Shown here piece by piece: positions 1,962 to 19,239 of a stretch of DNA of 55,013 nucleotides. The translations under genes were made by a program, and so were the position numbers. The first letter of the stretch is position 1, and each line of letters begins with the position of its first letter. The notes under the pieces are model-generated. The model made no database searches. It was not told the origin of the DNA and was given only the letters and a program-made list of their open reading frames with translations. The stretch lies in IMG/VR virus record IMGVR_UViG_2880412407_000004; one strand, 5' to 3'. This DNA is from a virus. Lineage: Duplodnaviria; Heunggongvirae; Uroviricota; Caudoviricetes.

Positions 1962-2759
1962 TTATAGCTCCTTTAATCGAGGCGGTTCTGGTAGAGGCAT
2001 CCAGTGGGTTACACCGCCAATTGGCTCATCGTCGTCGTACTCCAATGCGGTTATATAGAACCCGTCACGACGAGAATAAGAAATCCCGGACATTACAATG
2101 CCATCCGAAACAACAATAATGTCACCCGTTTCTTTCGGCATTCGCTCACTACAGCTTATCCAACCATCCGGAGTCACCGGAAGCGAGAACGGCAGCACAT
2201 CTCTGTGAACAAGTTTTTGCTGTGACAGGTTATCCAGAACTTTCTGTACTGCTGCATCACCGAATACACCAAGCGCATCTGCCATAACTCCTACAACCTG
2301 ATAAGCCTCAGCGCATACCGTGGATAAACCATCCGGAATTACCGGAGAGTTGCCGGGTTCTTTAATGTGCAAGCGAGGCTCACCATCTTTTGGTTCAGGC
2401 CACTGGCGCTCCATGTTGATCTTCAATTTATCTTCCATAGCAGCGGTAATTTCAGCATCGCTGATGCCAGCACGGCGCTGTGCATCCCACAACAGGAAAT
2501 GCATATCAGCCCACTCGCTGAGATCGTCTGGTTCGGCTGCGGCTTCCAGAGCCTCTTTTGAGAGGTGTTTCAGTGGACCAATGGGGCCAACGCAGCCAAA
2601 TGTGGAGTCAGACCATTTGGCATGCTCGTGGCGAATCAGTTCGCGTTCCAGTGATGCCAGTGCAATTCGTGCCAGTTCCATTTGTTCGCCACGAGTAAGC
2701 CCGTTTTCAAGCGGATTTTTAATGAACAATTCAATACGTTCTTTGGTAATAGTGGTCAT
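1962..2759 (-). CDS. Hypothetical protein; N-terminal MazG-like NTP pyrophosphohydrolase-like helices, C-terminal DUF551-like tail
   Basis: 265-aa ORF; segment EWADMHFLLWDAQRRAGISDAEITAAMEDKLKIN resembles MazG-type all-alpha NTP-PPase; C-terminal GGVTHWMPLPEPP resembles DUF551. Confidence 0.35.
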   Translation of the reverse strand: MTTITKERIELFIKNPLENGLTRGEQMELARIALASLERELIRHEHAKWSDSTFGCVGPIGPLKHLSKEALEAAAEPDDLSEWADMHFLLWDAQRRAGISDAEITAAMEDKLKINMERQWPEPKDGEPRLHIKEPGNSPVIPDGLSTVCAEAYQVVGVMADALGVFGDAAVQKVLDNLSQQKLVHRDVLPFSLPVTPDGWISCSERMPKETGDIIVVSDGIVMSGISYSRRDGFYITALEYDDDEPIGGVTHWMPLPEPPRLKEL

Positions 2760-2769
2760 TTGTTAGTCC

Positions 2770-3525
2770 TTAAACTGCTAGTTGCAATTGCATTTCAAAG
2801 CGGTCGCGTTGTTCACAATACGCAAGAGAACCAGGGCTATTGTGTGCCTCAATCCGTTCTACCATTAATGCTGCGCGTGTCTCTTTACTTGCAGGTGCAT
2901 AAGCCCCAGACCAGGCTTTATCAATACCGATGTTTCGAGCGACGTTCGTACTATCTGCGCTGGCTAAGGGTAATTTTGTGAATATCAGCGGATTTAACAT
3001 GCGCAATCCATGTAGTTTCGTAACCGGCTGACCATGCCCATCAACAATGTGACGAATCAGGTCTTTCATTCTGGCTACCGCAAGAGTTGGGCGCTTTACG
3101 TCATAGTCGCCACAACTACCGATAGCCACTCGCGGAAACTCATTGCACAAATGAATAAATCGCTCGTCACTTTCATTCATGTGCCACACTGGAACGCCAG
3201 CTAGTTTTCCGTGAGGCCACTCATTCAGAAGCGCATCATTTTCCTCCTCTCCGCCATCAATAACATCCGGGATAATGGCAAAATCTAATCCTGGGTGATT
3301 CTTCCAGCGAGCAACAAACTCGTAGTAATCGCTCCAGTCGATTTTGTTTTTGCCAGCTGCTTTCCAGGCGGTGAATGCACCGTTGTCCAGCGCGAACGAC
3401 TGACAGTATTCAGCCGCGAGATTGATCTGGCCTGAATGCGCAAAACTGATAAACGCATGTCGCCCTTTCCATGCTCTCATTGCGCACGTATCAGGAGTAA
3501 TAGGCCCACCGTGGTAGTGAATCAT
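2770..3525 (-). CDS. TGT-fold protein (tRNA-guanine transglycosylase / DpdA-like), tentative
   Basis: Likely start MIHYHGG at 3525; motif FALDNGAFTAW resembles the TGT-family DSGGF motif; further acidic motifs (IIPDVIDGGEEE, AIGSCGDYD). Confidence 0.3.
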   Translation of the reverse strand: MIHYHGGPITPDTCAMRAWKGRHAFISFAHSGQINLAAEYCQSFALDNGAFTAWKAAGKNKIDWSDYYEFVARWKNHPGLDFAIIPDVIDGGEEENDALLNEWPHGKLAGVPVWHMNESDERFIHLCNEFPRVAIGSCGDYDVKRPTLAVARMKDLIRHIVDGHGQPVTKLHGLRMLNPLIFTKLPLASADSTNVARNIGIDKAWSGAYAPASKETRAALMVERIEAHNSPGSLAYCEQRDRFEMQLQLAV

Positions 3526-3526
3526 C

Positions 3527-3934
3527 TCACTCTCCTTTGATGCGAATGCCAGTAGCGCGGATTGCATCGATGACTTCAGAAACTTTGTATGCCATTACCG
3601 TTTGGTAATCATCGTGAAAATCTGTTCGATGAAGCATGCTGCTACGTTCCGGGAGCAGTATTTCCCGCGCTTCCAGTTCTGCAATGCGCTTTTTTGCTGC
3701 TTCCAGTTCATCCAGTAATTCCAGCACGGTAGCCGGATTAGCCTTGGCAACAAAATCCCGGACTGGCTTACAATCAATCTCCGCAATGGGTTGATACGAT
3801 GTGTAGCCATGCTGTCTTGTATAACTACCGTGACGAATAACGAAAAAATCACCATTTATTTTTTTAGCCTGCCACTTATCTTCACCGGCTTTCTCTGCCG
3901 CTTCACGCAGTGCCTGAGAGTTAATTTCGCTCAC
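3527..3934 (-). CDS. Hypothetical protein (Ead/Ea22-like early-region protein)
   Basis: 135-aa ORF co-oriented in leftward early operon; coiled-coil segment LELLDELEAAKKRIAELEARE. Confidence 0.4.
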   Translation of the reverse strand: MSEINSQALREAAEKAGEDKWQAKKINGDFFVIRHGSYTRQHGYTSYQPIAEIDCKPVRDFVAKANPATVLELLDELEAAKKRIAELEAREILLPERSSMLHRTDFHDDYQTVMAYKVSEVIDAIRATGIRIKGE

Positions 3935-4152
3935 TTCGAACCTCTCTGTTTACTGATAAGCTCCAGATCCTCCTGGCAACTTGCACAAGTCCGACAACCC
4001 TGAACGACCAGGCGTCTTCGTTCATCTATGGGATCGCCACACTCACAACAATGAGTTGCGGATACAGTCTGGTAGTTCAGACGACGCATTTTTATTGCTG
4101 TATTGCGCTGTAATTCTTCGATTTCTGATGCTGAATCAATGATGTCTGCCAT
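3931..4152 (-). CDS. DksA/TraR-type C4 zinc-finger protein
   Basis: 73-aa ORF with CCECGDPIDERRRLVVQGCRTCASCQ (CxxC...CxxC) typical of TraR/DksA zinc finger. Confidence 0.5.
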   Translation of the reverse strand: MADIIDSASEIEELQRNTAIKMRRLNYQTVSATHCCECGDPIDERRRLVVQGCRTCASCQEDLELISKQRGSK

Positions 4153-7628: not shown

Positions 7629-7829
7629 TCAGGCAGCTTTGTTGTTCTGTTTACCAAGTTCTCTGGCAATCATTGCCGTCGTTCGTATTGCCCATTTATC
7701 GACATATTTCCCATCTTCCATTACAGGAAACATTTCTTCAGGCTTAACCATGCATTCCGATTGCAGCTTGCATCCATTGCATCGCTTGAATTGTCCACAC
7801 CATTGATTTTTATCAATAGTCGTAGTCAT
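7629..7829 (-). CDS. ral: Ral, restriction alleviation protein
   Basis: 66-aa ORF MTTTIDKNQWCGQFKRCNGCKLQSECMVKPEEMFPVMEDGKYVDKW... matches lambda Ral in length and sequence. Confidence 0.8.
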   Translation of the reverse strand: MTTTIDKNQWCGQFKRCNGCKLQSECMVKPEEMFPVMEDGKYVDKWAIRTTAMIARELGKQNNKAA

Positions 7830-8023: not shown

Positions 8024-8521
8024 TTGATGAGTATAGAAATGGATCTACTCGTTATTCTCGGACGAGTGTTCAGTAATGAACCTCTGGAGAGAACCATGTA
8101 TATGATCGTTATCTGGGTTGGACTTCTGCTTTTAAGCCCAGATAACTGGCCTGAATATGTTAATGAGAGAATCGGTATTCCTCATGTGTGGCATGTTTTC
8201 GTCTTTGCTCTTGCATTTTCGCTAGCAATTAATGTGCATCGATTATCAGCTATTGCCAGCGCCAGATATAAGCGATTTAAGCTAAGAAAACGCATGAAGA
8301 TGCAAAACGATAAAGTGCGATCAGTAATTCAAAACCTTACAGAAGAGCAATCTATGGTTTTGTGCGCAGCCCTTAATGAAGGCAGGAAGTATGTGGTTAC
8401 ATCAAAACAATTCCCATACATTAGTGAGTTGATTGAGCTTGGTGTGTTGAACAAAACTTTTCCCGATGGAACGGGAAGCATATATTATTCCCTATTGAGG
8501 ATATTTACTGGACTGAATTAG
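8024..8521 (+). CDS. sieB: Superinfection exclusion protein SieB
   Basis: 165-aa hydrophobic ORF on + strand between ral and N, the lambda sieB position and orientation. Confidence 0.65.
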   Translation: MMSIEMDLLVILGRVFSNEPLERTMYMIVIWVGLLLLSPDNWPEYVNERIGIPHVWHVFVFALAFSLAINVHRLSAIASARYKRFKLRKRMKMQNDKVRSVIQNLTEEQSMVLCAALNEGRKYVVTSKQFPYISELIELGVLNKTFPDGTGSIYYSLLRIFTGLN

Positions 8522-9119: not shown

Positions 9120-9195
9120 GATGCGCTTAGTATCACCGCTAGTGGTATTTGTGTCAACACCGCCAGAGATAATTTATCACCGCAGATGGTTATCT
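9120..9195 (-). promoter_or_regulatory. pL promoter with OL1-OL3 operators
   Basis: Three 17-bp TATCACCGC / ACACCGC operator-type sites (9131-9147, 9155-9171, 9174-9191); -35 TTGACA and -10 GATACT on the minus strand. Confidence 0.75.
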
Positions 9196-9381: not shown

Positions 9382-10239
9382 TTATCGTTTATTTCTTTGA
9401 TGTTTCTTTGCAGACTCAGCTTGAGTGTTTCCATACCTGCGTTTACCGCTATTGTTTTTTCCTCTAGGCTTGCCTTTTTTTCGAGCTTCCCACCAGTCAG
9501 GTGCCGGGTCTGGCTCAACATGTAAAGCATCGGCAAGTCCTGATATCAAGCTGTATGACTGAACTCCATCAATGTGCTCTGACAGTGATGGGGTAACATT
9601 CTGTCTTAGTGGATCAAGAATAAAATCAATACCTTTAATTCTGGCGTGTTTGGCGGCAGGCACAAAGTCTGAGTCCCCAGCAACAAGGACAATTACATCA
9701 ACAAGTTTTTCATAAGCTAAAGTCGTGATATCCATCCCTAGCTTGATATCAACTTGTTTTTGTTTGATGTCATAGTAAAAATCATCATTTGTCAGTTCAT
9801 CCCATTTTTTCGTTCCTTTCATCAGAGCATCAAGGGAGAATGTAGTTAGTTGCCATCGCTTATTATCAACAAGATTCCCTAATCTTAAGGCTGTTTTTCG
9901 AGTTTTTCTTAACTCTTCATGCAGCTCCGTTCTCAGAATATATGATTTTTCGAGTTTGAAATTCTTGCGACCAGGCGTCTTATTGCCAGGCTCAGGAAGT
10001 GGAAGGCGTGTTTGAATGTCGAGTGGTGGACAGTCATAGAAGTAAATTCTATAAAGCTCAAGCGGTTCCCTACGTTCTTGTGATTGACGTTTTCCATTAA
10101 GATGGGAAAGAACCATTGACCATATTACTTTCATTATGCATTGCGCAGTCAGTTCATGCTCGGCGAAGTGTTTACGATGCGTAGCATGAACACGCTGCAT
10201 GAAAAAACCCGCATCAATTAAAATTGCTGCTTTCTTCAT
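9382..10239 (-). CDS. NYN-domain (LabA/PIN-like) protein with highly basic C-terminal tail, at the rexAB position
   Basis: 285-aa ORF; N-terminal AILIDAGFF, QKQVDIKLGMDI and VIVLVAGDSDFVPAAKHARIKGIDFIL fit NYN-domain conserved acidic motifs; C-terminus ARKKGKPRGKNNSGKRRYGNTQAESAKKHQRNKR; co-oriented with and immediately downstream of cI. Confidence 0.6.
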   Translation of the reverse strand: MKKAAILIDAGFFMQRVHATHRKHFAEHELTAQCIMKVIWSMVLSHLNGKRQSQERREPLELYRIYFYDCPPLDIQTRLPLPEPGNKTPGRKNFKLEKSYILRTELHEELRKTRKTALRLGNLVDNKRWQLTTFSLDALMKGTKKWDELTNDDFYYDIKQKQVDIKLGMDITTLAYEKLVDVIVLVAGDSDFVPAAKHARIKGIDFILDPLRQNVTPSLSEHIDGVQSYSLISGLADALHVEPDPAPDWWEARKKGKPRGKNNSGKRRYGNTQAESAKKHQRNKR

Positions 10240-11825: not shown

Positions 11826-12725
11826 ATGACAAATACAGCAAAAATACTCAACTTCTGCAGAGGTAACTTTGCCGGACAGGAGCGTAATGTGGCAGATCTC
11901 GATGATGGTTACGCCAGACTATCAAATATGCTGCTTGAGGCTTATTCGGGCGCAGATCTGACCAAGCGACAGTTTAAAGTGCTGCTTGCCATTCTGCGTA
12001 AAACCTATGGGTGGAATAAACCAATGGACAGAATCACCGATTCTCAACTTAGCGAGATTACAAAGTTACCTGTCAAACGGTGCAATGAAGCCAAGTTAGA
12101 ACTCGTCAGAATGAATATTATCAAGCAGCAAGGCGGCATGTTTGGACCAAACAAAAACATCTCAGAATGGTGCATCCCTCAAAACGAGGGAAAATCCCCT
12201 AAAACGAGGGATAAAACATCCCTCAAATTGGGGGATTGCTATCCCTCAAAACAGGGGGACACAAAAGACACTATTACAAAAGAAAAAAGAAAAGATTATT
12301 CGTCAGAGAATTCTGGCGAATCCTCTGACCAGCCAGAAAACGACCTTTCTGTGGTGAAACCGGATGCTGCAATTCAGAGCGGCAGCAAGTGGGGGACAGC
12401 AGAAGACCTGACCGCCGCAGAGTGGATGTTTGACATGGTGAAGACCATCGCGCCATCAGCCAGAAAACCGAATTTTGCAGGGTGGGCTAACGATATCCGC
12501 CTGATGCGTGAACGTGACGGACGTAACCACCGCGACATGTGCGTGCTGTTCCGCTGGGCATGCCAGGACAACTTCTGGTCCGGTAACGTGCTAAGTCCGG
12601 CCAAACTCCGCGACAAGTGGACCCAGCTCGAAATCAACCGTAACAAGCAACAGGCAGTCGTGACAGCCAGTAAACCAAAACTCGACCTGACAAACACAGA
12701 CTGGATTTACGGGGGGGATCTATGA
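11826..12725 (+). CDS. O: Replication initiator O
   Basis: 299-aa ORF MTNTAKILNFCRGNFAGQERNVADLDDGYARLSNMLLEAYSGADLTKRQFKVLLAIL... matches lambda O; contains ori iterons. Confidence 0.95.
   Translation: MTNTAKILNFCRGNFAGQERNVADLDDGYARLSNMLLEAYSGADLTKRQFKVLLAILRKTYGWNKPMDRITDSQLSEITKLPVKRCNEAKLELVRMNIIKQQGGMFGPNKNISEWCIPQNEGKSPKTRDKTSLKLGDCYPSKQGDTKDTITKEKRKDYSSENSGESSDQPENDLSVVKPDAAIQSGSKWGTAEDLTAAEWMFDMVKTIAPSARKPNFAGWANDIRLMRERDGRNHRDMCVLFRWACQDNFWSGNVLSPAKLRDKWTQLEINRNKQQAVVTASKPKLDLTNTDWIYGGDL
12194..12300 (+). other. Lambda-type replication origin: four iterons plus AT-rich region inside O
   Basis: Repeats ATCCCTCAAAACGAGGG / ATCCCCTAAAACGAGGG / ATCCCTCAAATTGGGGG / ATCCCTCAAAACAGGGGG followed by an A-rich tract. 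Confidence 0.85.
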
Positions 12726-13423
12726 AAAACATCGCCGCACAGATGGTTAACTTTGACCGTGAGCAGATGCGTCGGATCGCCAACAACATGCCGGAACAGT
12801 ACGACGAAAAGCCGCAGGTACAGCAGGTAGCGCAGATCATCAACGGTGTGTTCAGCCAGTTACTGGCAACTTTCCCGGCGAGCCTGGCTAACCGTGACCA
12901 GAACGAACTGAACGAAATCCGCCGCCAGTGGGTTCTGGCTTTCCGGGAAAACGGGATCACCACAATGGAACAGGTTAACGCAGGAATGCGCGTAGCCCGT
13001 CGGCAGAATCGACCATTTCTGCCATCACCCGGGCAGTTTGTCGCCTGGTGCCGGGAAGAAGCATCCGTTATCGCCGGACTGCCAAACGTCAGCGAGCTGG
13101 TTGATATGGTTTACGAGTATTGCCGGAAGCGAGGCCTGTATCCGGATGCGGAGTCTTATCCGTGGAAATCAAACGCGCACTACTGGCTGGTTACCAACCT
13201 GTATCAGAACATGCGGGCCAATGCGCTTACTGATGCGGAATTACGGCGCAAGGCTGCCGATGAACTGACCTGTATGACAGCGCGAATTAACCGTGGTGAG
13301 ACGATACCTGAACCAGTAAAACAACTTCCTGTTATGGGCGGTAGACCTCTAAATCGTGCACAGGCTCTGGCGAAGATCGCAGAAATTAAAGCTAAGTTCG
13401 GACTGAAAGGAGCAAGTGTATGA
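12722..13423 (+). CDS. P: Replication protein P (DnaB helicase loader)
   Basis: 233-aa ORF MKNIAAQMVNFDREQMRRIANNMPEQYDEKPQVQQVAQIINGVFSQLLATFPASLANRDQNELNEIRRQW... matches lambda P. Confidence 0.95.
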   Translation: MKNIAAQMVNFDREQMRRIANNMPEQYDEKPQVQQVAQIINGVFSQLLATFPASLANRDQNELNEIRRQWVLAFRENGITTMEQVNAGMRVARRQNRPFLPSPGQFVAWCREEASVIAGLPNVSELVDMVYEYCRKRGLYPDAESYPWKSNAHYWLVTNLYQNMRANALTDAELRRKAADELTCMTARINRGETIPEPVKQLPVMGGRPLNRAQALAKIAEIKAKFGLKGASV

Positions 13424-13710
13424 CGGGCAAAGAGGCAATTATTCATTACCTGGGGACGCATAATAGCTTCTGTGCGCCGGACGTTGCCGCGCTAACAGGC
13501 GCAACAGTAACCAGCATAAATCAGGCCGCGGCTAAAATGGCACGGGCAGGTCTTCTGGTTATCGAAGGTAAGGTCTGGCGAACGGTGTATTACCGGTTTG
13601 CTACCAAGGAAGAACGGGAAGGAAAGATGAGCACGAACCTGATTTTTAAGGAGTGTCGCCAGAGTGCCGCGATGAAACGGGTATTGGCGGTATATGGAGT
13701 TAAAAGATGA
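13420..13710 (+). CDS. ren: Ren
   Basis: 96-aa ORF MTGKEAIIHYLGTHNSFCAPDVAALTGATVTSINQAAAKMARAGLLVIEGKVWRTVYYRFATKEE... matches lambda Ren. Confidence 0.9.
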   Translation: MTGKEAIIHYLGTHNSFCAPDVAALTGATVTSINQAAAKMARAGLLVIEGKVWRTVYYRFATKEEREGKMSTNLIFKECRQSAAMKRVLAVYGVKR

Positions 13711-13783
13711 CCATCTACATCACTGAGCTAATAACAGGCCTGCTGGTAATCGCAGGCCTTTTTATTTGGGGGAGAGGGAAGTC

Positions 13784-14224
13784 ATGAAAAAACTAACCTT
13801 TGAAATTCGATCTCCAGCACATCAGCAAAACGCTATTCACGCAGTACAGCAAATCCTTCCAGACCCAACCAAACCAATCGTAGTAACCATTCAGGAACGC
13901 AACCGCAGCTTAGACCAAAACAGGAAGCTATGGGCCTGCTTAGGTGACGTCTCTCGTCAGGTTGAATGGCATGGTCGCTGGCTGGATGCAGAAAGCTGGA
14001 AGTGTGTGTTTACCGCAGCATTAAAGCAGCAGGATGTTGTTCCTAACCTTGCCGGGAATGGCTTTGTGGTAATAGGCCAGTCAACCAGCAGGATGCGTGT
14101 AGGCGAATTTGCGGAGCTATTAGAGCTTATACAGGCATTCGGTACAGAGCGTGGCGTTAAGTGGTCAGACGAAGCGCGACTGGCTCTCGAATGGAAAGCG
14201 CGATGGGGAGACAGGGCGGCATGA
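13784..14224 (+). CDS. ninB: NinB (Orf recombination mediator)
   Basis: [81 protein letters not shown]... matches lambda NinB. Confidence 0.85.
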
Positions 14225-14403
14225 GACGACAGCGACGAAGTTTCACCGACATCATCTGCGAAAACTGCAAATACCTTCCAACGAAACGCTCCAGAAATAA
14301 ACGCAAGCCAATCCCAAAAGAATCTGACGTAAAAACCTTCAACTACACGGCTCACCTGTGGGATATCCGGTGGCTAAGACATCGTGCGAGGAATACAAGG
14401 TGA
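14221..14403 (+). CDS. ninE: NinE-like small protein
   Basis: 60-aa [60 protein letters not shown] within ORF 14161..14403. Confidence 0.55.
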
Positions 14404-14570
14404 TTGACCCAAATCGAAGTTACGAACAAGAAAGCGTCGAGCGGGCTTTAACGTGCGCTAATTGCGGTCAGAAGCTGCATGTGCTGGAAGTTCACGTGTG
14501 TGAGTACTGCTGTGCAGAGCTGATGAGCGATTCGAATAGCTCGATGCACGAGGAAGAAGATGATGGCTAA
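14400..14570 (+). CDS. ninF: NinF-like small zinc-ribbon protein
   Basis: GTG-start [56 protein letters not shown] within ORF 14358..14570. Confidence 0.5.
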
Positions 14571-15183
14571 ACCAGCGCGAAGACGATGTAAAAACGATGA
14601 ATGTCGGGAATGGTTTCACCCTGCATTAGCTAATCAGTGGTGGTGCTCTCCAGAGTGTGGAACCAAGATAGCACTCGAACGACGAAGCAAAGAACGCGAA
14701 AAAGCGGAAAAGGCAGAAAAGGCAGCAGAGAAGAAACGACGACGAGAGGAGCAGAAACAGAAAGATAAACTTAAGATTCAAAAACTCGCCTTAAAGCCCC
14801 GCAGTTACTGGATTAAACAAGCCCAACAAGCCGTAAACGCCTTCATCAGAGAAAGAGACCGCGACTTACCATGTATCTCGTGCGGAACGCTCACGTCTGC
14901 TCAGTGGGATGCCGGACATTACCGGACAACTGCTGCGGCACCTCAACTCCGATTTGATGAACGCAATATTCACAAGCAATGCGTGGTGTGCAACCAGCAC
15001 AAAAGCGGAAATCTCGTTCCGTATCGCGTCGAACTGATTAGCCGCATCGGGCAGGAGGCAGTAGAGGAAATCGAATCAAACCATAACCGCTATCGCTGGA
15101 CTGTCGAAGAGTGCAGGGCCATCAAGGCGGAGTATCAACAGAAACTTAAAAAACTGCGAAACAGCAGAAGTGAGGTTGCATGA
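14560..15183 (+). CDS. ninG: NinG (Rap, recombination-promoting nuclease)
   Basis: 207-aa ORF with conserved Cys clusters ([10 protein letters not shown]...CSPECG; CISCG...CVVCNQHK) as in lambda NinG. Confidence 0.85.
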
Positions 15184-15845
15184 ATATCTACGAAAGAATT
15201 GATGGCAGCAAATACCGAAATATTTGGGTAGCTGGCGATCTGCATGGATGCTACACGAACCTGATGAAAAAACTGGAGACGATAGGATTCGACACCAAAA
15301 AAGACCTGCTTATCTCGGTGGGCGATTTGGTTGATCGCGGTACAGAGAACGTAGAATGCCTGGAATTAATCACATTCCCCTGGTTCAGAGCTGTACGTGG
15401 AAACCATGAGCAAATGATGATTGATGGCTTATCAGAGCGTGGAAACGTCAATCACTGGCTGCTTAATGGCGGTGGCTGGTTCTTTAATCTCGATTACGAC
15501 AAAGAAATTCTGGCTAAAGCTCTTGCCCATAAAGCAGATGAACTTCCGTTAATCATCGAACTGGTGAGTAAAGGAAAAAAATATGTCATCTGCCACGCCG
15601 ATTATTCTTGTGATAAATACGAGTTTGGAAAGCCAGTTGATCATCAGCAGGTAATCTGGAACCGCGAACGAATCAGCAACTCACAAGACGGGATCGTGAA
15701 AGAAATCAAAGGCGCGGACACGTTCATCTTTGGTCATACGCAAGCAGTGAAACCACTCAAATTTGCCAACCAGATGTATATCGATACTGGCGCAGTGTTC
15801 TGCGGAAACCTCACATTGATTCAGGTACAGGGAGAAGGCGCATGA
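15180..15845 (+). CDS. ninI: Ser/Thr protein phosphatase (lambda PPase, NinI)
   Basis: 221-aa ORF with calcineurin-like metallophosphatase motifs GDLHG, GDLVDRG, GNHE; matches lambda phosphatase. Confidence 0.9.
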
Positions 15846-15974
15846 GACTCGAAAGCGTAGCTAAATTTCATTCGCCAAAAAGCCCGATGATGAGCGACTC
15901 ACTACTGGCCACAGTTTATTGGTTTTCGTAACTGAGTCATTTTATTATTTTATTGCAACTTTTAATCTTTTATA

Positions 15975-16020
15975 GTGCGAAATAAATGGAGCTAGCATTC
16001 ATTTCGCACTTTATGTTTTT
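15975..16020 (+). terminator. Putative terminator after the nin operon
   Basis: Inverted repeat GCGAAAT...ATTTCGC followed by a T-rich segment. Confidence 0.3.
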
Positions 16021-16056
16021 GTTGGACTTATGTTATTTTGATTGAATTCAATTCAG

Positions 16057-17016
16057 TTAAAAAAAGAAGGTGATTGCTCCATTTATAAATGAATAGTCAT
16101 CCCCTGTCTTGAATTCTGATGTTACTTTATTAAATGCTAGTGTGAAGGCTACAGGTGCATACCCAATTGTTGCGCCAACTTGATATTCATCAACAGTTTT
16201 GTTTAGCGATACTGTTGTTTGTTTCGTCTGTATTGTTTTTCCTTCGAGAGTATAGTTGCGATTGACATCTCGTCTTTCCATACCTGCAAAAATCTTGTAT
16301 TTGAATCCGCTTGTATCGGACATATGCATTAAACCACGGGGAGCCAGCAGACCAAAGCCATTATCCGAATTGAAGGTTTTATCATTACCAATGGCAATGG
16401 TTGCGCCATATGCTACATATTGAAATAAGTTTCCAGTAACAGCAGAAACTTCAGGGTATAATCCAACATTAGCACCTAAAATATCCATACTTGGTGTCAT
16501 GGATAGCATCCCTTTTACAGTATAACCGTAGCGATTCTCTATTTGATCATCCCATGCATGATATTTTTCTGCCCCAATAATCTCATGAGCTTTATTTTGT
16601 ACTTTCTGACCGCCTGCGTCGGGGCCAACAACACCTATGTCAGTACCTAATCGATAGCGAATCCAGTCATTCGCAAGGGAGTTCCATTCAATACCTGTGT
16701 GAGTGTATGCGCTAAAAGCTCTGTCTCCAGTTACAGCTGTGTTGTGTCTTTTATTACTGCCTGATGGAGAGTAAATATCTTGCGCAATATGGAGAGATAA
16801 TTGGCTCGAGTCTGAGATATCGTGGCTATATCCCAGAAATAAGCCTTGTGAGTAATCATCTCTGTTTTCATGTTTATTGCCATAAATATCATTAAGTATT
16901 GGTTGAAACTTCCCTGCATCATCATTTGCTAATGATAATGCAAGGCTGTTCGCGATAGCTGAACACGTGGTAAATGACAGAGCAATAAAGACGCCAGCGA
17001 TGACACTTTTTTTCAT
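16057..17016 (-). CDS. Predicted outer-membrane beta-barrel protein (signal peptide, C-terminal aromatic residue); AT-rich cargo gene
   Basis: 319-aa ORF with N-terminal signal-like MKKSVIAGVFIALSFTTCSAIANSLA, alternating Gly/Tyr-rich amphipathic segments, terminal FFF; opposite orientation to flanking phage genes. Confidence 0.55.
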   Translation of the reverse strand: MKKSVIAGVFIALSFTTCSAIANSLALSLANDDAGKFQPILNDIYGNKHENRDDYSQGLFLGYSHDISDSSQLSLHIAQDIYSPSGSNKRHNTAVTGDRAFSAYTHTGIEWNSLANDWIRYRLGTDIGVVGPDAGGQKVQNKAHEIIGAEKYHAWDDQIENRYGYTVKGMLSMTPSMDILGANVGLYPEVSAVTGNLFQYVAYGATIAIGNDKTFNSDNGFGLLAPRGLMHMSDTSGFKYKIFAGMERRDVNRNYTLEGKTIQTKQTTVSLNKTVDEYQVGATIGYAPVAFTLAFNKVTSEFKTGDDYSFINGAITFFF

Positions 17017-17408
17017 ATGTTATTGTCTTCCTTTTTTTTGAATGGTGCGCGTATTTTACATACATGAGTTTGTAATACAAGGTGCGTAATCAATATGATG
17101 TTTTATAATTGCGTGAGACAATTGATTTATTCGTTTTTTATTGTTGTTTTTATTATCTTTTAATGTAACGGTGTTTTTATTAGGTGTGTTTGTGTGGTGT
17201 TTTATGTTTTTATAATTTTTATTTTATTAAATTTAAATGCATTAGTAATGGCTATTCTATATAGCAATATAAGAACTGTTACAAAAAAAGGGGGGGGGCA
17301 ATTACAGGTAGTTATGGATGATGAGTGAAACAGATATTGGAGAACCGGGGAATGAATGATGTCTGAGTCTTATATATCAGAACTCCTTCGCTGTCGCTGG
17401 GGGCTCCT

Positions 17409-18182
17409 GTGCTTATGTCGTTTCCCCGATTCGGTTTTGAACGATTACCGAATGTTGAAGAATTATGCCAAAATATAGAAAGGATTTACTGCATGAATAC
17501 CCAATATTTACAGTATGTTCGTGAGCAACTTATGGCAGCTACTGCTGACTTGAACGGAGCAACGAAAGGCCAGCTCGAAGCCTGGCAGGAGCATGCACAA
17601 TTTGATACTGGTACATACAAACGAAAGAAGCCGCGCATTCTGGATGTGGTAACTGGCAAGATGATTACGCTGGATAATACGCCGACTTCCGGTAAGCAGT
17701 CGTACGCAAAAGGTTCATCCATTGCTTTGGTCAGCCCGGTTGAATTCTCAACCTCTTCATGGCGCCGCGCGGTTTTGTCTCTCGATGAACATCAGAAAGC
17801 ATGGTTGCTTTGGTGTTACAGCGAAAGCGTTCGATGGGGGCATCAGGTCACCATAACGCAATGGGCATGGAGCGAGTTTAAAGATTTGTTAAGTAACAGA
17901 AAAATTGCAGGTAAGACACTGGATCGCCTGAAGACGTTAATCTGGCTGGCTGCACAGGATGTGAAGAGCGAACTTGCAGGGCGTGAGGCCTATGAATACC
18001 AGACACTGGCATCATTGGTGGGAGTGACAACAAAAAACTGGTCCGAGACATTTACTGAACGCTGGGTTGCAATGAAGCACATTTTTCTACAGCTTGATAG
18101 TGATGCTTTATTGCTTGTGACGAAAACACGTTCAAAACAAAAGGCAGCATTTTTACAGCAAAATATTGCAAAACTGGATTAA
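17409..18182 (+). CDS. Putative late-gene antiterminator (Q-like) assigned by position; family uncertain
   Basis: 257-aa ORF (possible true start MNTQYLQY at 17493) between the nin region and a hairpin plus T-run; occupies the lambda Q position but is unlike lambda Q. Confidence 0.35.
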   Translation: MLMSFPRFGFERLPNVEELCQNIERIYCMNTQYLQYVREQLMAATADLNGATKGQLEAWQEHAQFDTGTYKRKKPRILDVVTGKMITLDNTPTSGKQSYAKGSSIALVSPVEFSTSSWRRAVLSLDEHQKAWLLWCYSESVRWGHQVTITQWAWSEFKDLLSNRKIAGKTLDRLKTLIWLAAQDVKSELAGREAYEYQTLASLVGVTTKNWSETFTERWVAMKHIFLQLDSDALLLVTKTRSKQKAAFLQQNIAKLD

Positions 18183-18227
18183 AAGTCATATACTTCATGC
18201 AAATTTGGTATGTTGTAAAAAATGTAT

Positions 18228-18257
18228 AAACCCGCTGCCGAGTGGGTTTTTTTATGC
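18228..18257 (+). terminator. Candidate tR-prime-like terminator or qut-region hairpin downstream of the Q-like gene
   Basis: AAACCC-(10 nt)-GGGTTT stem followed by a run of T. Confidence 0.4.
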
Positions 18258-18350
18258 CCTGAGTTGTACTTGTACGGTAAACATGCTGGCTGCTATGTAA
18301 TAGAGTTTTTTTAGCCTGTAACCTCTTGACGGCATTGAATTGCTTTTGTT

Positions 18351-19109
18351 ATGAGTTGTAAGCCAATGTTATCATCTTGTATTGGGGGGGTTATGAAGGA
18401 TGGTGCGCTGCTCAGGAGTTCTTCACTTTTTATTGCCTACATGGGATGCCTTGGATGGGGGAGTGCTTATTTCTATGGATGGGGTACTTCTTTTTACTAC
18501 GGCTTCCCATGGTGGATTGTAGGTGCAGGTGTTGATGATGTTGCCAGAAGTTTATTTTTTGCAGTTATCGTCATTGCTATATTTCTTATCGGTTGGGGTA
18601 TTGGTGTTGTATTCTTTTTCGCAGTGAAAAGAAAACATTCTATGCAAGAGCTAAATGTATTTCGCCTTTATTTTGCTGTGGAATTATTGTTTGTGCCGGC
18701 AATTATTGAGTTTTCTATATTGAGACAGAAGATTCAGGTACCTCTTTTGCTACTGTCAGCAGCGATTGCGCTGGCGGTTACAATTTCGATAAGATCTTAT
18801 GGGCGATTTTTATCGGTATCATGCTTCTATGATAAGCCATTTATAAAAAAACATTTTTTTGAGATTGTGATGATTGCTTTTGTGGCATATTTCTGGCTTT
18901 TTTCATTTCTGACAGGATATTACAAACCACAGTTTAAGAAAGAATATGAAATGATTAATTATAATGATGGTTGGTATTATGTTCTTGCTCGTTATGATAA
19001 TTGTCTGGTTTTGTCTACTTCTTTCAATGCAGGTAGTAAAAGGTTTGTCATTTATCAATCAGCACAAGATAAGAATCTTCAGGTTGATATTGTAAGGACC
19101 AGAATTTAA
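18351..19109 (+). CDS. Multi-pass inner-membrane protein of unknown function; AT-rich cargo at the stx-equivalent position
   Basis: 252-aa ORF with several hydrophobic helices (WWIVGAGV..., FFAVIVIAIFLIGWGIGVVFFFAV, VPLLLLSAAIALAVTISI, IVMIAFVAYFWLFSFL) and a C-terminal soluble region; low GC relative to phage backbone. Confidence 0.55.
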   Translation: MSCKPMLSSCIGGVMKDGALLRSSSLFIAYMGCLGWGSAYFYGWGTSFYYGFPWWIVGAGVDDVARSLFFAVIVIAIFLIGWGIGVVFFFAVKRKHSMQELNVFRLYFAVELLFVPAIIEFSILRQKIQVPLLLLSAAIALAVTISIRSYGRFLSVSCFYDKPFIKKHFFEIVMIAFVAYFWLFSFLTGYYKPQFKKEYEMINYNDGWYYVLARYDNCLVLSTSFNAGSKRFVIYQSAQDKNLQVDIVRTRI

Positions 19110-19239
19110 TTGGCTGCATAAATAATATTTTAAGTTGCAAGTTGGCTATTCGTAGGAATAGAACCTTAGGCATGCTGAATGCGTTTTCTGAACATTGTTT
19201 TATAAACTGTGTCTGCTTGCTGTTGTGATCCTGCTTTTA

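Follow-up and report, generated by a model that had tools for sequence, protein, structure and literature searches.

The stretch of DNA considered here, hereafter the window, comprises 55,013 nucleotides of one strand from a virus of the class Caudoviricetes (IMG/VR record IMGVR_UViG_2880412407_000004), and two adjacent open reading frames (ORFs) on its minus strand, ORF A and ORF B, are the subject of this report. ORF B probably encodes a minimal, 251-aa guanine transglycosylase of the phage DpdA family, of the group known as 'DpdA-only', which is carried in the pL operon of a lambdoid prophage, uses a base made by the host, and has no partner in ORF A. Direct support exists for the family membership, the fold, the conservation of the active site, the purifying selection, the absence of genes for 7-cyano-7-deazaguanine (preQ0) synthesis, and the absence of conserved linkage to a neighbouring gene. 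The two genes are as follows, TGT standing for tRNA-guanine transglycosylase.

2770..3525, minus strand: ORF B, 251 aa, predicted phage DpdA-family (TGT-superfamily) guanine transglycosylase of the 'DpdA-only' type
1962..2759, minus strand: ORF A, 265 aa, EaA-type mosaic protein with an N-terminal module, a predicted DUF550 NTP pyrophosphohydrolase domain and a DUF551 domain

Four independent lines of evidence, namely the PHROG match, sequence relatedness, the predicted fold and the predicted active site, assign ORF B to the phage DpdA branch of the TGT superfamily. The protein matches phrog_887, 'queuine tRNA-ribosyltransferase', at E 1.8e-103, and tblastn with ORF B reached 115 phage records, including MED16 and 7-11 (35–37% identity) and Iggy-type Pseudomonas phages (27%), while Iggy DpdA, compared with the window by tblastn, matched ORF B at E 4.3e-10. 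A profile of 54 ORF B homologues aligned by hhalign with the DpdA proteins of CAjan, Iggy and Rosebush at 99.2% probability (E 3.3e-19, 169 columns), and the motifs LD(N/S)GAF, P-x-(W/F)-H, K-x-H-G and S-x-DS were in register, the LDNGAF of ORF B pairing with the LDSGAF of CAjan and Iggy DpdA, and its SADS with the SCDSS of CAjan DpdA. The AlphaFold2 (AF2) model of ORF B is a confident (beta/alpha)8 barrel, with a predicted local distance difference test score (pLDDT) of 91.6 and a predicted template modelling score (pTM) of 0.89. In the structure comparison this barrel was closest to TGT-type enzymes, ranking Cap10 (9NTN chain B) first with 15.5, followed by bacterial DpdA (7UI4) with 14.6, and bacterial TGT (3UNT) and archaeosine TGT (1IQ8) with 13.3 each. 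Significant matches of the model among the predicted viral structures of BFVD were mostly phage 'queuine tRNA-ribosyltransferases' or unnamed phage proteins. An earlier note, made from the sequence alone, had proposed a DpdA-like protein of TGT fold, to be checked by prediction of a triosephosphate isomerase (TIM) barrel, and the PHROG and hhalign matches, the AF2 barrel and the DpdA-type BFVD matches bear this proposal out.

3373..3390, minus strand: LDNGAF motif, ORF B residues 46–51, with D47 the predicted general acid/base and F51 the predicted base-stacking gate
2950..2961, minus strand: SADS motif, ORF B residues 189–192, with D191 the predicted nucleophile

Besides LDNGAF, ORF B has the acidic motifs IPDVID (D87) and SADS (D191). 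Across the 54 homologues, whose identity falls as low as 34%, no variation occurs at D47, H172, S189, D191 or S192, and conservation of D87 and H115 is 90% or more; the motifs that the earlier note had singled out are thus conserved in the family rather than strings that occur by chance. The active-site residues D47, F51, D87, H115, H172 and D191 are all kept in ORF B, including the three aspartates predicted for acid/base catalysis (D47), base recognition (D87) and nucleophilic attack (D191). Judged by motif order and spacing, the active-site residues of ORF B would correspond to Asp95/Phe99, Asp130, His181 and Asp256 of bacterial DpdA, in which Asp95 and Asp256 are essential by mutagenesis; the D-x-x-x-F spacing of LDNGAF is that of Asp95/Phe99. 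The motifs likewise suggest a correspondence of the active-site residues with D73/S74, D122, K154, H226 and D248 of Cap10. H172, invariant as noted, pairs with H187 of CAjan DpdA. A conserved histidine described as separating DpdA from DpdA2 is given as 'position 196' in the numbering of PMC6884629.

The ratio of nonsynonymous to synonymous substitution rates (dN/dS) of ORF B is 0.014–0.023 against homologues of 93–94% identity (loci L022, L025 and L028), with synonymous sites saturated. Purifying selection on ORF B is unusually strong for an accessory 'ea-region' gene. A search of 5.8 billion proteins gave more than 7800 homologues at E <= 0.001; the profile-based repeat of this search returned the same close family without added diversity, and the diverse homologues came from a representative-library search.

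3532..3538, minus strand: Shine-Dalgarno sequence AAAGGAG for the ATG at 3525, read from the sequence and overlapping the end of the Ead/Ea22-like gene
3527..3934, minus strand: Ead/Ea22-like gene (PF13935, E 2.6e-17), directly upstream of ORF B

Read mechanically, ORF B would begin at an upstream ATG and span 2770..3567. This start at 3567 was rejected because it would fall within the Ead/Ea22 gene, no homologue reaches upstream of 3525, and the ATG at 3525 has its own Shine-Dalgarno sequence. The position of the Ead/Ea22 stop codon (3529..3527), one base before the ORF B ATG, points to the same start, as do the homologues, which all begin MIHYHGG, and the coding sequence of the Prokaryotic Genome Annotation Pipeline (PGAP), which gives the identical 251 aa (WP_000582238.1). 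We therefore regard the start at 3525 as correct, and the earlier note had placed both ORFs properly on the minus strand. The arrangement suggests that the Ead/Ea22-like gene is apparently translationally coupled to ORF B. Many gene names of the window, here and below, are those of the PGAP annotation of a matching, identical prophage record. RefSeq labels ORF B a hypothetical protein in all E. coli genomes, and its BTP1 orthologue a 'queuine tRNA-ribosyltransferase'.

Phages with enzymes of this kind have been catalogued by Hutinet et al. 2019 (Nat Commun, PMC6884629), whose third group comprises 76 phages encoding DpdA only. Supplementary Data 1 of PMC6884629 lists under 'DpdA only' the proteins of BTP1 (SIU02687), SPN3UB (YP_007011024), SfI (YP_009147480) and HK106 (YP_007151699), and other members of the group are 7-11, SEN1 and MED16. 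ORF B is 92.8% identical to the BTP1 and SPN3UB proteins, about 67% to that of SfI, and 35–38% to those of HK106, 7-11 and MED16. As in the window, these phages have a single dpdA gene, no preQ0 genes of their own and a host with the full queuosine pathway, and many of them are temperate, infect enterobacteria and carry dpdA in the accessory part of the early-left region; the copy in ORF B differs in lying in a prophage of E. coli O121:H19, where it is annotated as a hypothetical protein only. With the same subfamily in BTP1, SPN3UB, SfI and HK106 listed in 2019, ORF B is a member of an already catalogued kind and nothing conceptually new, and the remark in the earlier note that in lambda-type phages such genes usually go unnoted is out of date.

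The DpdA1 enzymes of Queuovirinae (CAjan, 9g, Iggy) have a homologous TIM-barrel core, share LD(S/N)GAF, P-x-(W/F)-H, K-x-H-(G/A) and S-x-DS with ORF B, and, like it, have no Zn-binding Cys cluster; CAjan DpdA is genetically essential for the insertion of the preQ0 deoxynucleoside, dPreQ0. Identity to ORF B is about 22–27% over the aligned region, DpdA1 being some 55 aa longer at its ends. Unlike ORF B, DpdA1 is encoded beside folE/queD/queE/queC, and in these phages, which also encode preQ0 synthesis, 16–32% of G is modified, with clear protection from restriction. Bacterial DpdA of the Dpd restriction-modification system (PDB 7UI4) has the same proposed double-displacement chemistry, but it is a protein of 413 aa with insertions Ins1–3 and with Ins8, which is 128 residues long and anchored by a CXCX2CX22H Zn site, none of which ORF B has. 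The bacterial enzyme also needs the DpdB ATPase, whereas the prophage annotation includes neither dpdB nor dpdC, and the PADLOC DpdA model does not match ORF B. CAjan DpdA, for its part, matches that PADLOC model weakly (E 0.0013). Cap10 of type IV cyclic-oligonucleotide-based antiphage signalling (CBASS; 9NTN chain B) is, like ORF B, a compact Zn-less barrel of the TGT family, with 9% identity; the His/Asp catalytic pair and the Asp-Ser/Asn base-reading motif are shared. Cap10, however, works on a deazaguanine linked to a protein, and its gene belongs to a defence operon that also encodes a CD-NTase and the QueC-like Cap9; the annotated prophage has no CD-NTase or Cap9 genes, the window has no QueC homologue by tblastn, and there is no PADLOC match.

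From these relatives we infer the DNA substrate, the base used, the modification level and whatever benefit there may be against restriction. In the mechanism predicted from the homology to TGT and DpdA, D191 would attack C1' of a target deoxyguanosine, guanine would leave, and a covalent enzyme–DNA intermediate would form, with D47 serving as general acid/base. A free 7-deazaguanine base would then resolve the intermediate to give dPreQ0, the whole being a double-displacement base exchange. This base is most likely preQ0 from the host FolE/QueD/QueE/QueC pathway, and dPreQ0 may go on to the amidated deoxynucleoside, dADG. As in the DpdA-only phages that have been tested, modification would probably be sparse and sequence-specific. 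None of FolE, QueD, QueE and QueC was found in the window by tblastn with the Iggy proteins over its whole length (best E 0.12), and the PGAP annotation of the identical prophage has no FolE/QueD/QueE/QueC, Gat-QueC, ArcS or QueF; ORF B must therefore rely on a base made by the host. E. coli makes preQ0 and preQ1 for queuosine. Moreover, when DpdA2 of Vibrio phage nt-1 is produced by itself in wild-type E. coli, plasmid DNA receives dPreQ0, whereas none is inserted in a queD deletion mutant (PMC10516641), so a lone DpdA working on the host base is feasible. Clustering of the neighbours of dpdA-like genes in 80 loci (described below) gave no conserved partner, and hence no candidate enzyme for the step from preQ0 to ADG.

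ORF B lies in a lambdoid prophage, the first 12 kb of the window (positions 1–12 kb) being 100% identical to a prophage beside torS in several Shiga-toxigenic E. coli (STEC) O121:H19 genomes. Past this part, over 12000..22500, the window is no longer identical to NZ_CP027454.1, the best-matching genome, and coordinates are shifted by 1 nt by about 22.5 kb; an IS600 copy that breaks tail genes in NZ_CP027454.1 is absent from the window. The early-left genes are all on the minus strand, in the order N, cIII, kil, gam, bet, exo, several small ea-type genes, a DksA-like zinc finger gene, the Ead/Ea22-like gene, ORF B, ORF A, an ea8.5-like gene, xis and int. The placement of ORF A and ORF B in the b-region by the earlier note is inexact in this respect, as they occupy the 'ea' interval between xis and exo in the pL operon and not the classical lambda b region.

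9129..9157, minus strand: pL-type promoter TTGACA-17-GATACT, a perfect match read from the sequence
3931..4152, minus strand: DksA-like zinc finger gene of the early-left region

The promoter at 9157..9129 most likely drives a leftward, N-antiterminated operon that includes ORF A and ORF B, and the gene order, together with the perfect promoter match, suggests that both are delayed-early, N-antiterminated genes. Positioned between exo/bet and xis/int in such an operon, ORF B would be made during lytic growth. The early-left region also carries a Ral-family antirestriction gene at 7629..7829 (minus strand), so that the prophage is already equipped with a classical anti-restriction function, and a SieB superinfection-exclusion gene at 8024..8521 (plus strand). 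Between N and the cI-type repressor, in the rex position, is a single 285-aa ORF at 9382..10239 (minus strand), which PGAP divides into an NYN-domain protein and a partial gene, and which may be a prophage-encoded defence or exclusion function. Farther along, at 16057..17016 (minus strand), PGAP annotates in the identical prophage a moron gene for an LpxR-family lipid A deacylase, flanked on one side by a truncated antitermination gene and on the other by a second Q gene. An element of the IS66 family of insertion sequences (IS), with tnpA, tnpB and tnpC, is inserted in the late region at 21792..24443 (plus strand), where it adjoins a DUF6645 gene with an internal stop, and the matching genome record has a truncated antiterminator and a frameshifted Rha gene. 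The IS66 insertion and the damaged genes suggest a defective prophage.

Several points weigh against ORF B being a functional DNA-modifying DpdA. ORF B was searched both as a single sequence (by phmmer in the case of PDB sequences) and as the 54-sequence profile, and it gave no match in Pfam (E <= 1), NCBIfam, PADLOC or the PDB sequences, while Foldseek of its model against the PDB was unspecific, returning only generic TIM barrels with tryptophan synthase alpha among the top matches. It has neither the Zn site (CXCX2C...H) nor the large Ins8 insertion of bacterial DpdA. The prophage contains IS insertions, and phage production is possibly nil. In Salmonella phage 7-11 dADG amounts to only about 0.02% of G, and in Pantoea phage MED16 to about 0.13%, with no protection from the restriction enzymes tested, so DNA may not be the physiologically relevant target. 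These are the only DpdA-only phages assayed; both are virulent, and their enzymes are about 35% identical to ORF B. Finally, the literature searches gave no experiment on any DpdA-only enzyme from a lambdoid or P22-like phage, the subfamily of BTP1, SPN3UB, SfI and this prophage included, and the BTP1 transcriptome paper does not mention the dpdA-like gene.

The earlier note had proposed a search with the PF01702 hidden Markov model (HMM) as a check, and ORF B does not match it, but this result is uninformative, as the validated DpdA proteins of CAjan, Iggy and Rosebush match neither PF01702 nor any other Pfam family at E <= 1 either; those of MED16, 7-11 and HK106 likewise have no PF01702 match. 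For this reason the negatives in Pfam, NCBIfam, PADLOC and the PDB sequences are not taken as a refutation, and current HMM libraries do not cover phage DpdAs. As to the metal site, the five Cys residues of ORF B (14, 41, 127, 138 and 237) form no cluster, and CAjan, Iggy and Rosebush DpdA also have none. An isoelectric point (pI) or a missing Zn site as a marker of DNA-acting as opposed to other enzymes was rejected, since CAjan and Iggy DpdA share both with ORF B.

Among the alternatives, the one that survives best, though we consider it unlikely, is that ORF B is a TGT-superfamily enzyme acting on a substrate other than DNA, either tRNA or, as Cap10 does, a protein-linked 7-deazaguanine, and serving as a counter-defence or host-manipulation factor. 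The resemblance to Cap10, which reportedly also has no Zn site and whose H226/D248 resembles the H172/D191 pair of ORF B, is consistent with such a role, as is the contrast between very strong sequence constraint on ORF B and a DNA phenotype as marginal as that of the assayed DpdA-only phages, with 0.02–0.13% of G modified and no restriction protection in MED16. However, the ORF B family is nearer by sequence to the DNA-modifying phage DpdA1 (E 3e-19), CAjan and Iggy DpdA have no Zn motif and a similar pI, so that neither feature separates the two readings, no CD-NTase, Cap9/QueC-like or Qat gene is near ORF B and PADLOC gives no match, and 7-deazaguanine is really present in the DNA of 7-11 and MED16. 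A broader form of the idea, which is more doubtful still, extends it to all DpdA-only enzymes of this compact, Zn-less type in temperate phages of enterobacteria: because Cap10 is the best structural match, DNA modification in assayed relatives occurs in traces and purifying selection is very strong, these enzymes might not be for DNA protection and might have another guanine or deazaguanine target, for instance tRNA or the deazaguanylated CD-NTase/Qat intermediates of host defence. If this were true, the phage would make them early in lytic growth for counter-defence or to reprogramme its host.

The earlier note had also suggested that ORF B and ORF A could form a joint DNA-modification or nucleotide-pool module. 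In such a module ORF A might, for example, lower dGTP or supply a precursor favouring the modified G; this we hold to be improbable. The domains of ORF A are as follows.

2646..2759, minus strand: N-terminal module MTTITKERIELFIKNPLENGLTRGEQMELARIALASLE, about 38 aa, which stays downstream of dpdA while C-terminal modules swap
2349..2636, minus strand: PF04447 (formerly DUF550, now 'dATP/dGTP pyrophosphohydrolase', MazZ-type), ORF A residues 42–137
1980..2165, minus strand: PF04448 (DUF551) C-terminal domain, ORF A residues 199–260, E 7.5e-14

The PF04447 match (E 1.1e-41; 141.4 bits against a cut-off of 23) and that to PF04448 uphold the description of ORF A as a MazG-like pyrophosphohydrolase with a DUF551 tail. 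The motifs K68-E69-x-x-E72 and E82-x-x-D85 are invariant in both alignments of ORF A homologues, and ExxE...ExxD motifs are typical of all-alpha NTP pyrophosphohydrolases. AF2 gave no usable fold for ORF A (pLDDT 39 with a shallow alignment), and the predicted MazG-like fold is based on Pfam and these motifs. In E. coli, the 265-aa form is annotated as 'DUF550 domain-containing protein', whereas in the PGAP annotation the N-terminal piece stands apart as a partial pseudogene. Compared over the full length with P22 EaA, ORF A shows 47.7% identity, and the two proteins share the two-domain architecture PF04447+PF04448. The characterised DUF550 enzyme, that of the Z-genome Acinetobacter phage SH-Ab 15497, makes dGMP and dAMP for 2-aminoadenine genomes; it is a DUF5664-DUF550 fusion encoded next to purZ, a setting unlike that of ORF A. 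No purZ, datZ or dpoZ is annotated in the matching prophage record, the window itself not having been searched directly for them.

The adjacency of the two genes, which share a strand, are separated by 10 nt and each have a Shine-Dalgarno sequence, could speak for a module, as could the service of DUF550 enzymes in the base-replacement pathway of Z-genome phages. The dpdA allele occurs in 203 of 5426 complete E. coli genomes, and in 100 of these it directly adjoins this ORF A. Against this, some part of the two-gene query was found in 2795 of the 5426 genomes, at up to nine places each, the matching part not being resolved; we take the excess to be mostly ORF A-type (EaA) sequence, and if so, adjacency is expected from the shared position in a mosaic region. 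Linkage was examined in 80 IMG/VR loci with a dpdA-like gene (67–100% identity), DUF550 being sought within 5 kb. It was present in only 11 of the 80, seven of which represent the same prophage type (>=99% identical DpdA), and in four of the 63 loci whose DpdA is 67–94% identical. The recurrent neighbour clusters were Ead/Ea22 upstream (39 of 80) and EaA-type ORFs downstream (35 of 80, in a single-linkage cluster whose members share N-terminal or DUF551 modules), and there were no others. Beside near-identical dpdA alleles (loci L006–L021 and L060), the downstream ORF begins in every case with the module of about 38 aa, but its C-terminus swaps between DUF550 with DUF551, DUF551 alone and unrelated sequence, which indicates a mosaic recombination joint inside the coding sequence. 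At other loci, the gene downstream of dpdA is RusA-like, by N-terminal sequence, or unrelated to any gene of the window, so freely does it vary, and MED16, 7-11 and HK106 have no DUF550 neighbour. The chemistry of DpdA is, moreover, a post-replicative exchange on DNA with a free base, which needs no change in the dNTP pool, and nothing links it to the making of dGMP and dAMP by the one characterised DUF550 enzyme. The module is thus unsupported and the two genes are chance neighbours, ORF A being an unrelated EaA-type protein of a highly recombinogenic accessory region and not a functional partner of ORF B.

That ORF B is a decaying or functionless passenger of a defective prophage, with a resemblance to DpdA that is historical only, appears very improbable. 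The IS66 element, the gene with an internal stop and the truncated or frameshifted genes of the prophage are in keeping with decay, and so is the label of hypothetical protein that RefSeq gives ORF B throughout E. coli, but the reading frame itself is unbroken, has a Shine-Dalgarno sequence and is apparently coupled in translation to the gene before it, retains all catalytic residues, has the very low dN/dS given above with saturated synonymous sites, and belongs to a family of thousands of homologues (>7800). A generic TIM-barrel enzyme outside TGT/DpdA, with a coincidental LDNGAF, is strongly disfavoured and hardly credible, since the missing PF01702 match is shared by the validated phage DpdAs, and the unspecific top Foldseek matches, such as tryptophan synthase alpha, are set against the 99.2% hhalign match to validated DpdA, the direct tblastn match from Iggy DpdA and the DpdA-type matches in BFVD.

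The reading of ORF B as a DpdA-only enzyme dependent on host preQ0 is mildly new in two respects, namely that in E. coli the gene still goes under the label of hypothetical protein and that the structural nearest neighbour of the predicted model is Cap10. It is useful for annotation, since what some 200 complete genomes of E. coli, outbreak-type STEC O121:H19 among them, list as a 'hypothetical protein' would become a DpdA-family 7-deazaguanine insertase. In addition, ORF B, or its orthologues in plaque-forming phages such as BTP1 and HK106, would be convenient for learning what a lone, host-preQ0-dependent DpdA achieves in a temperate phage.

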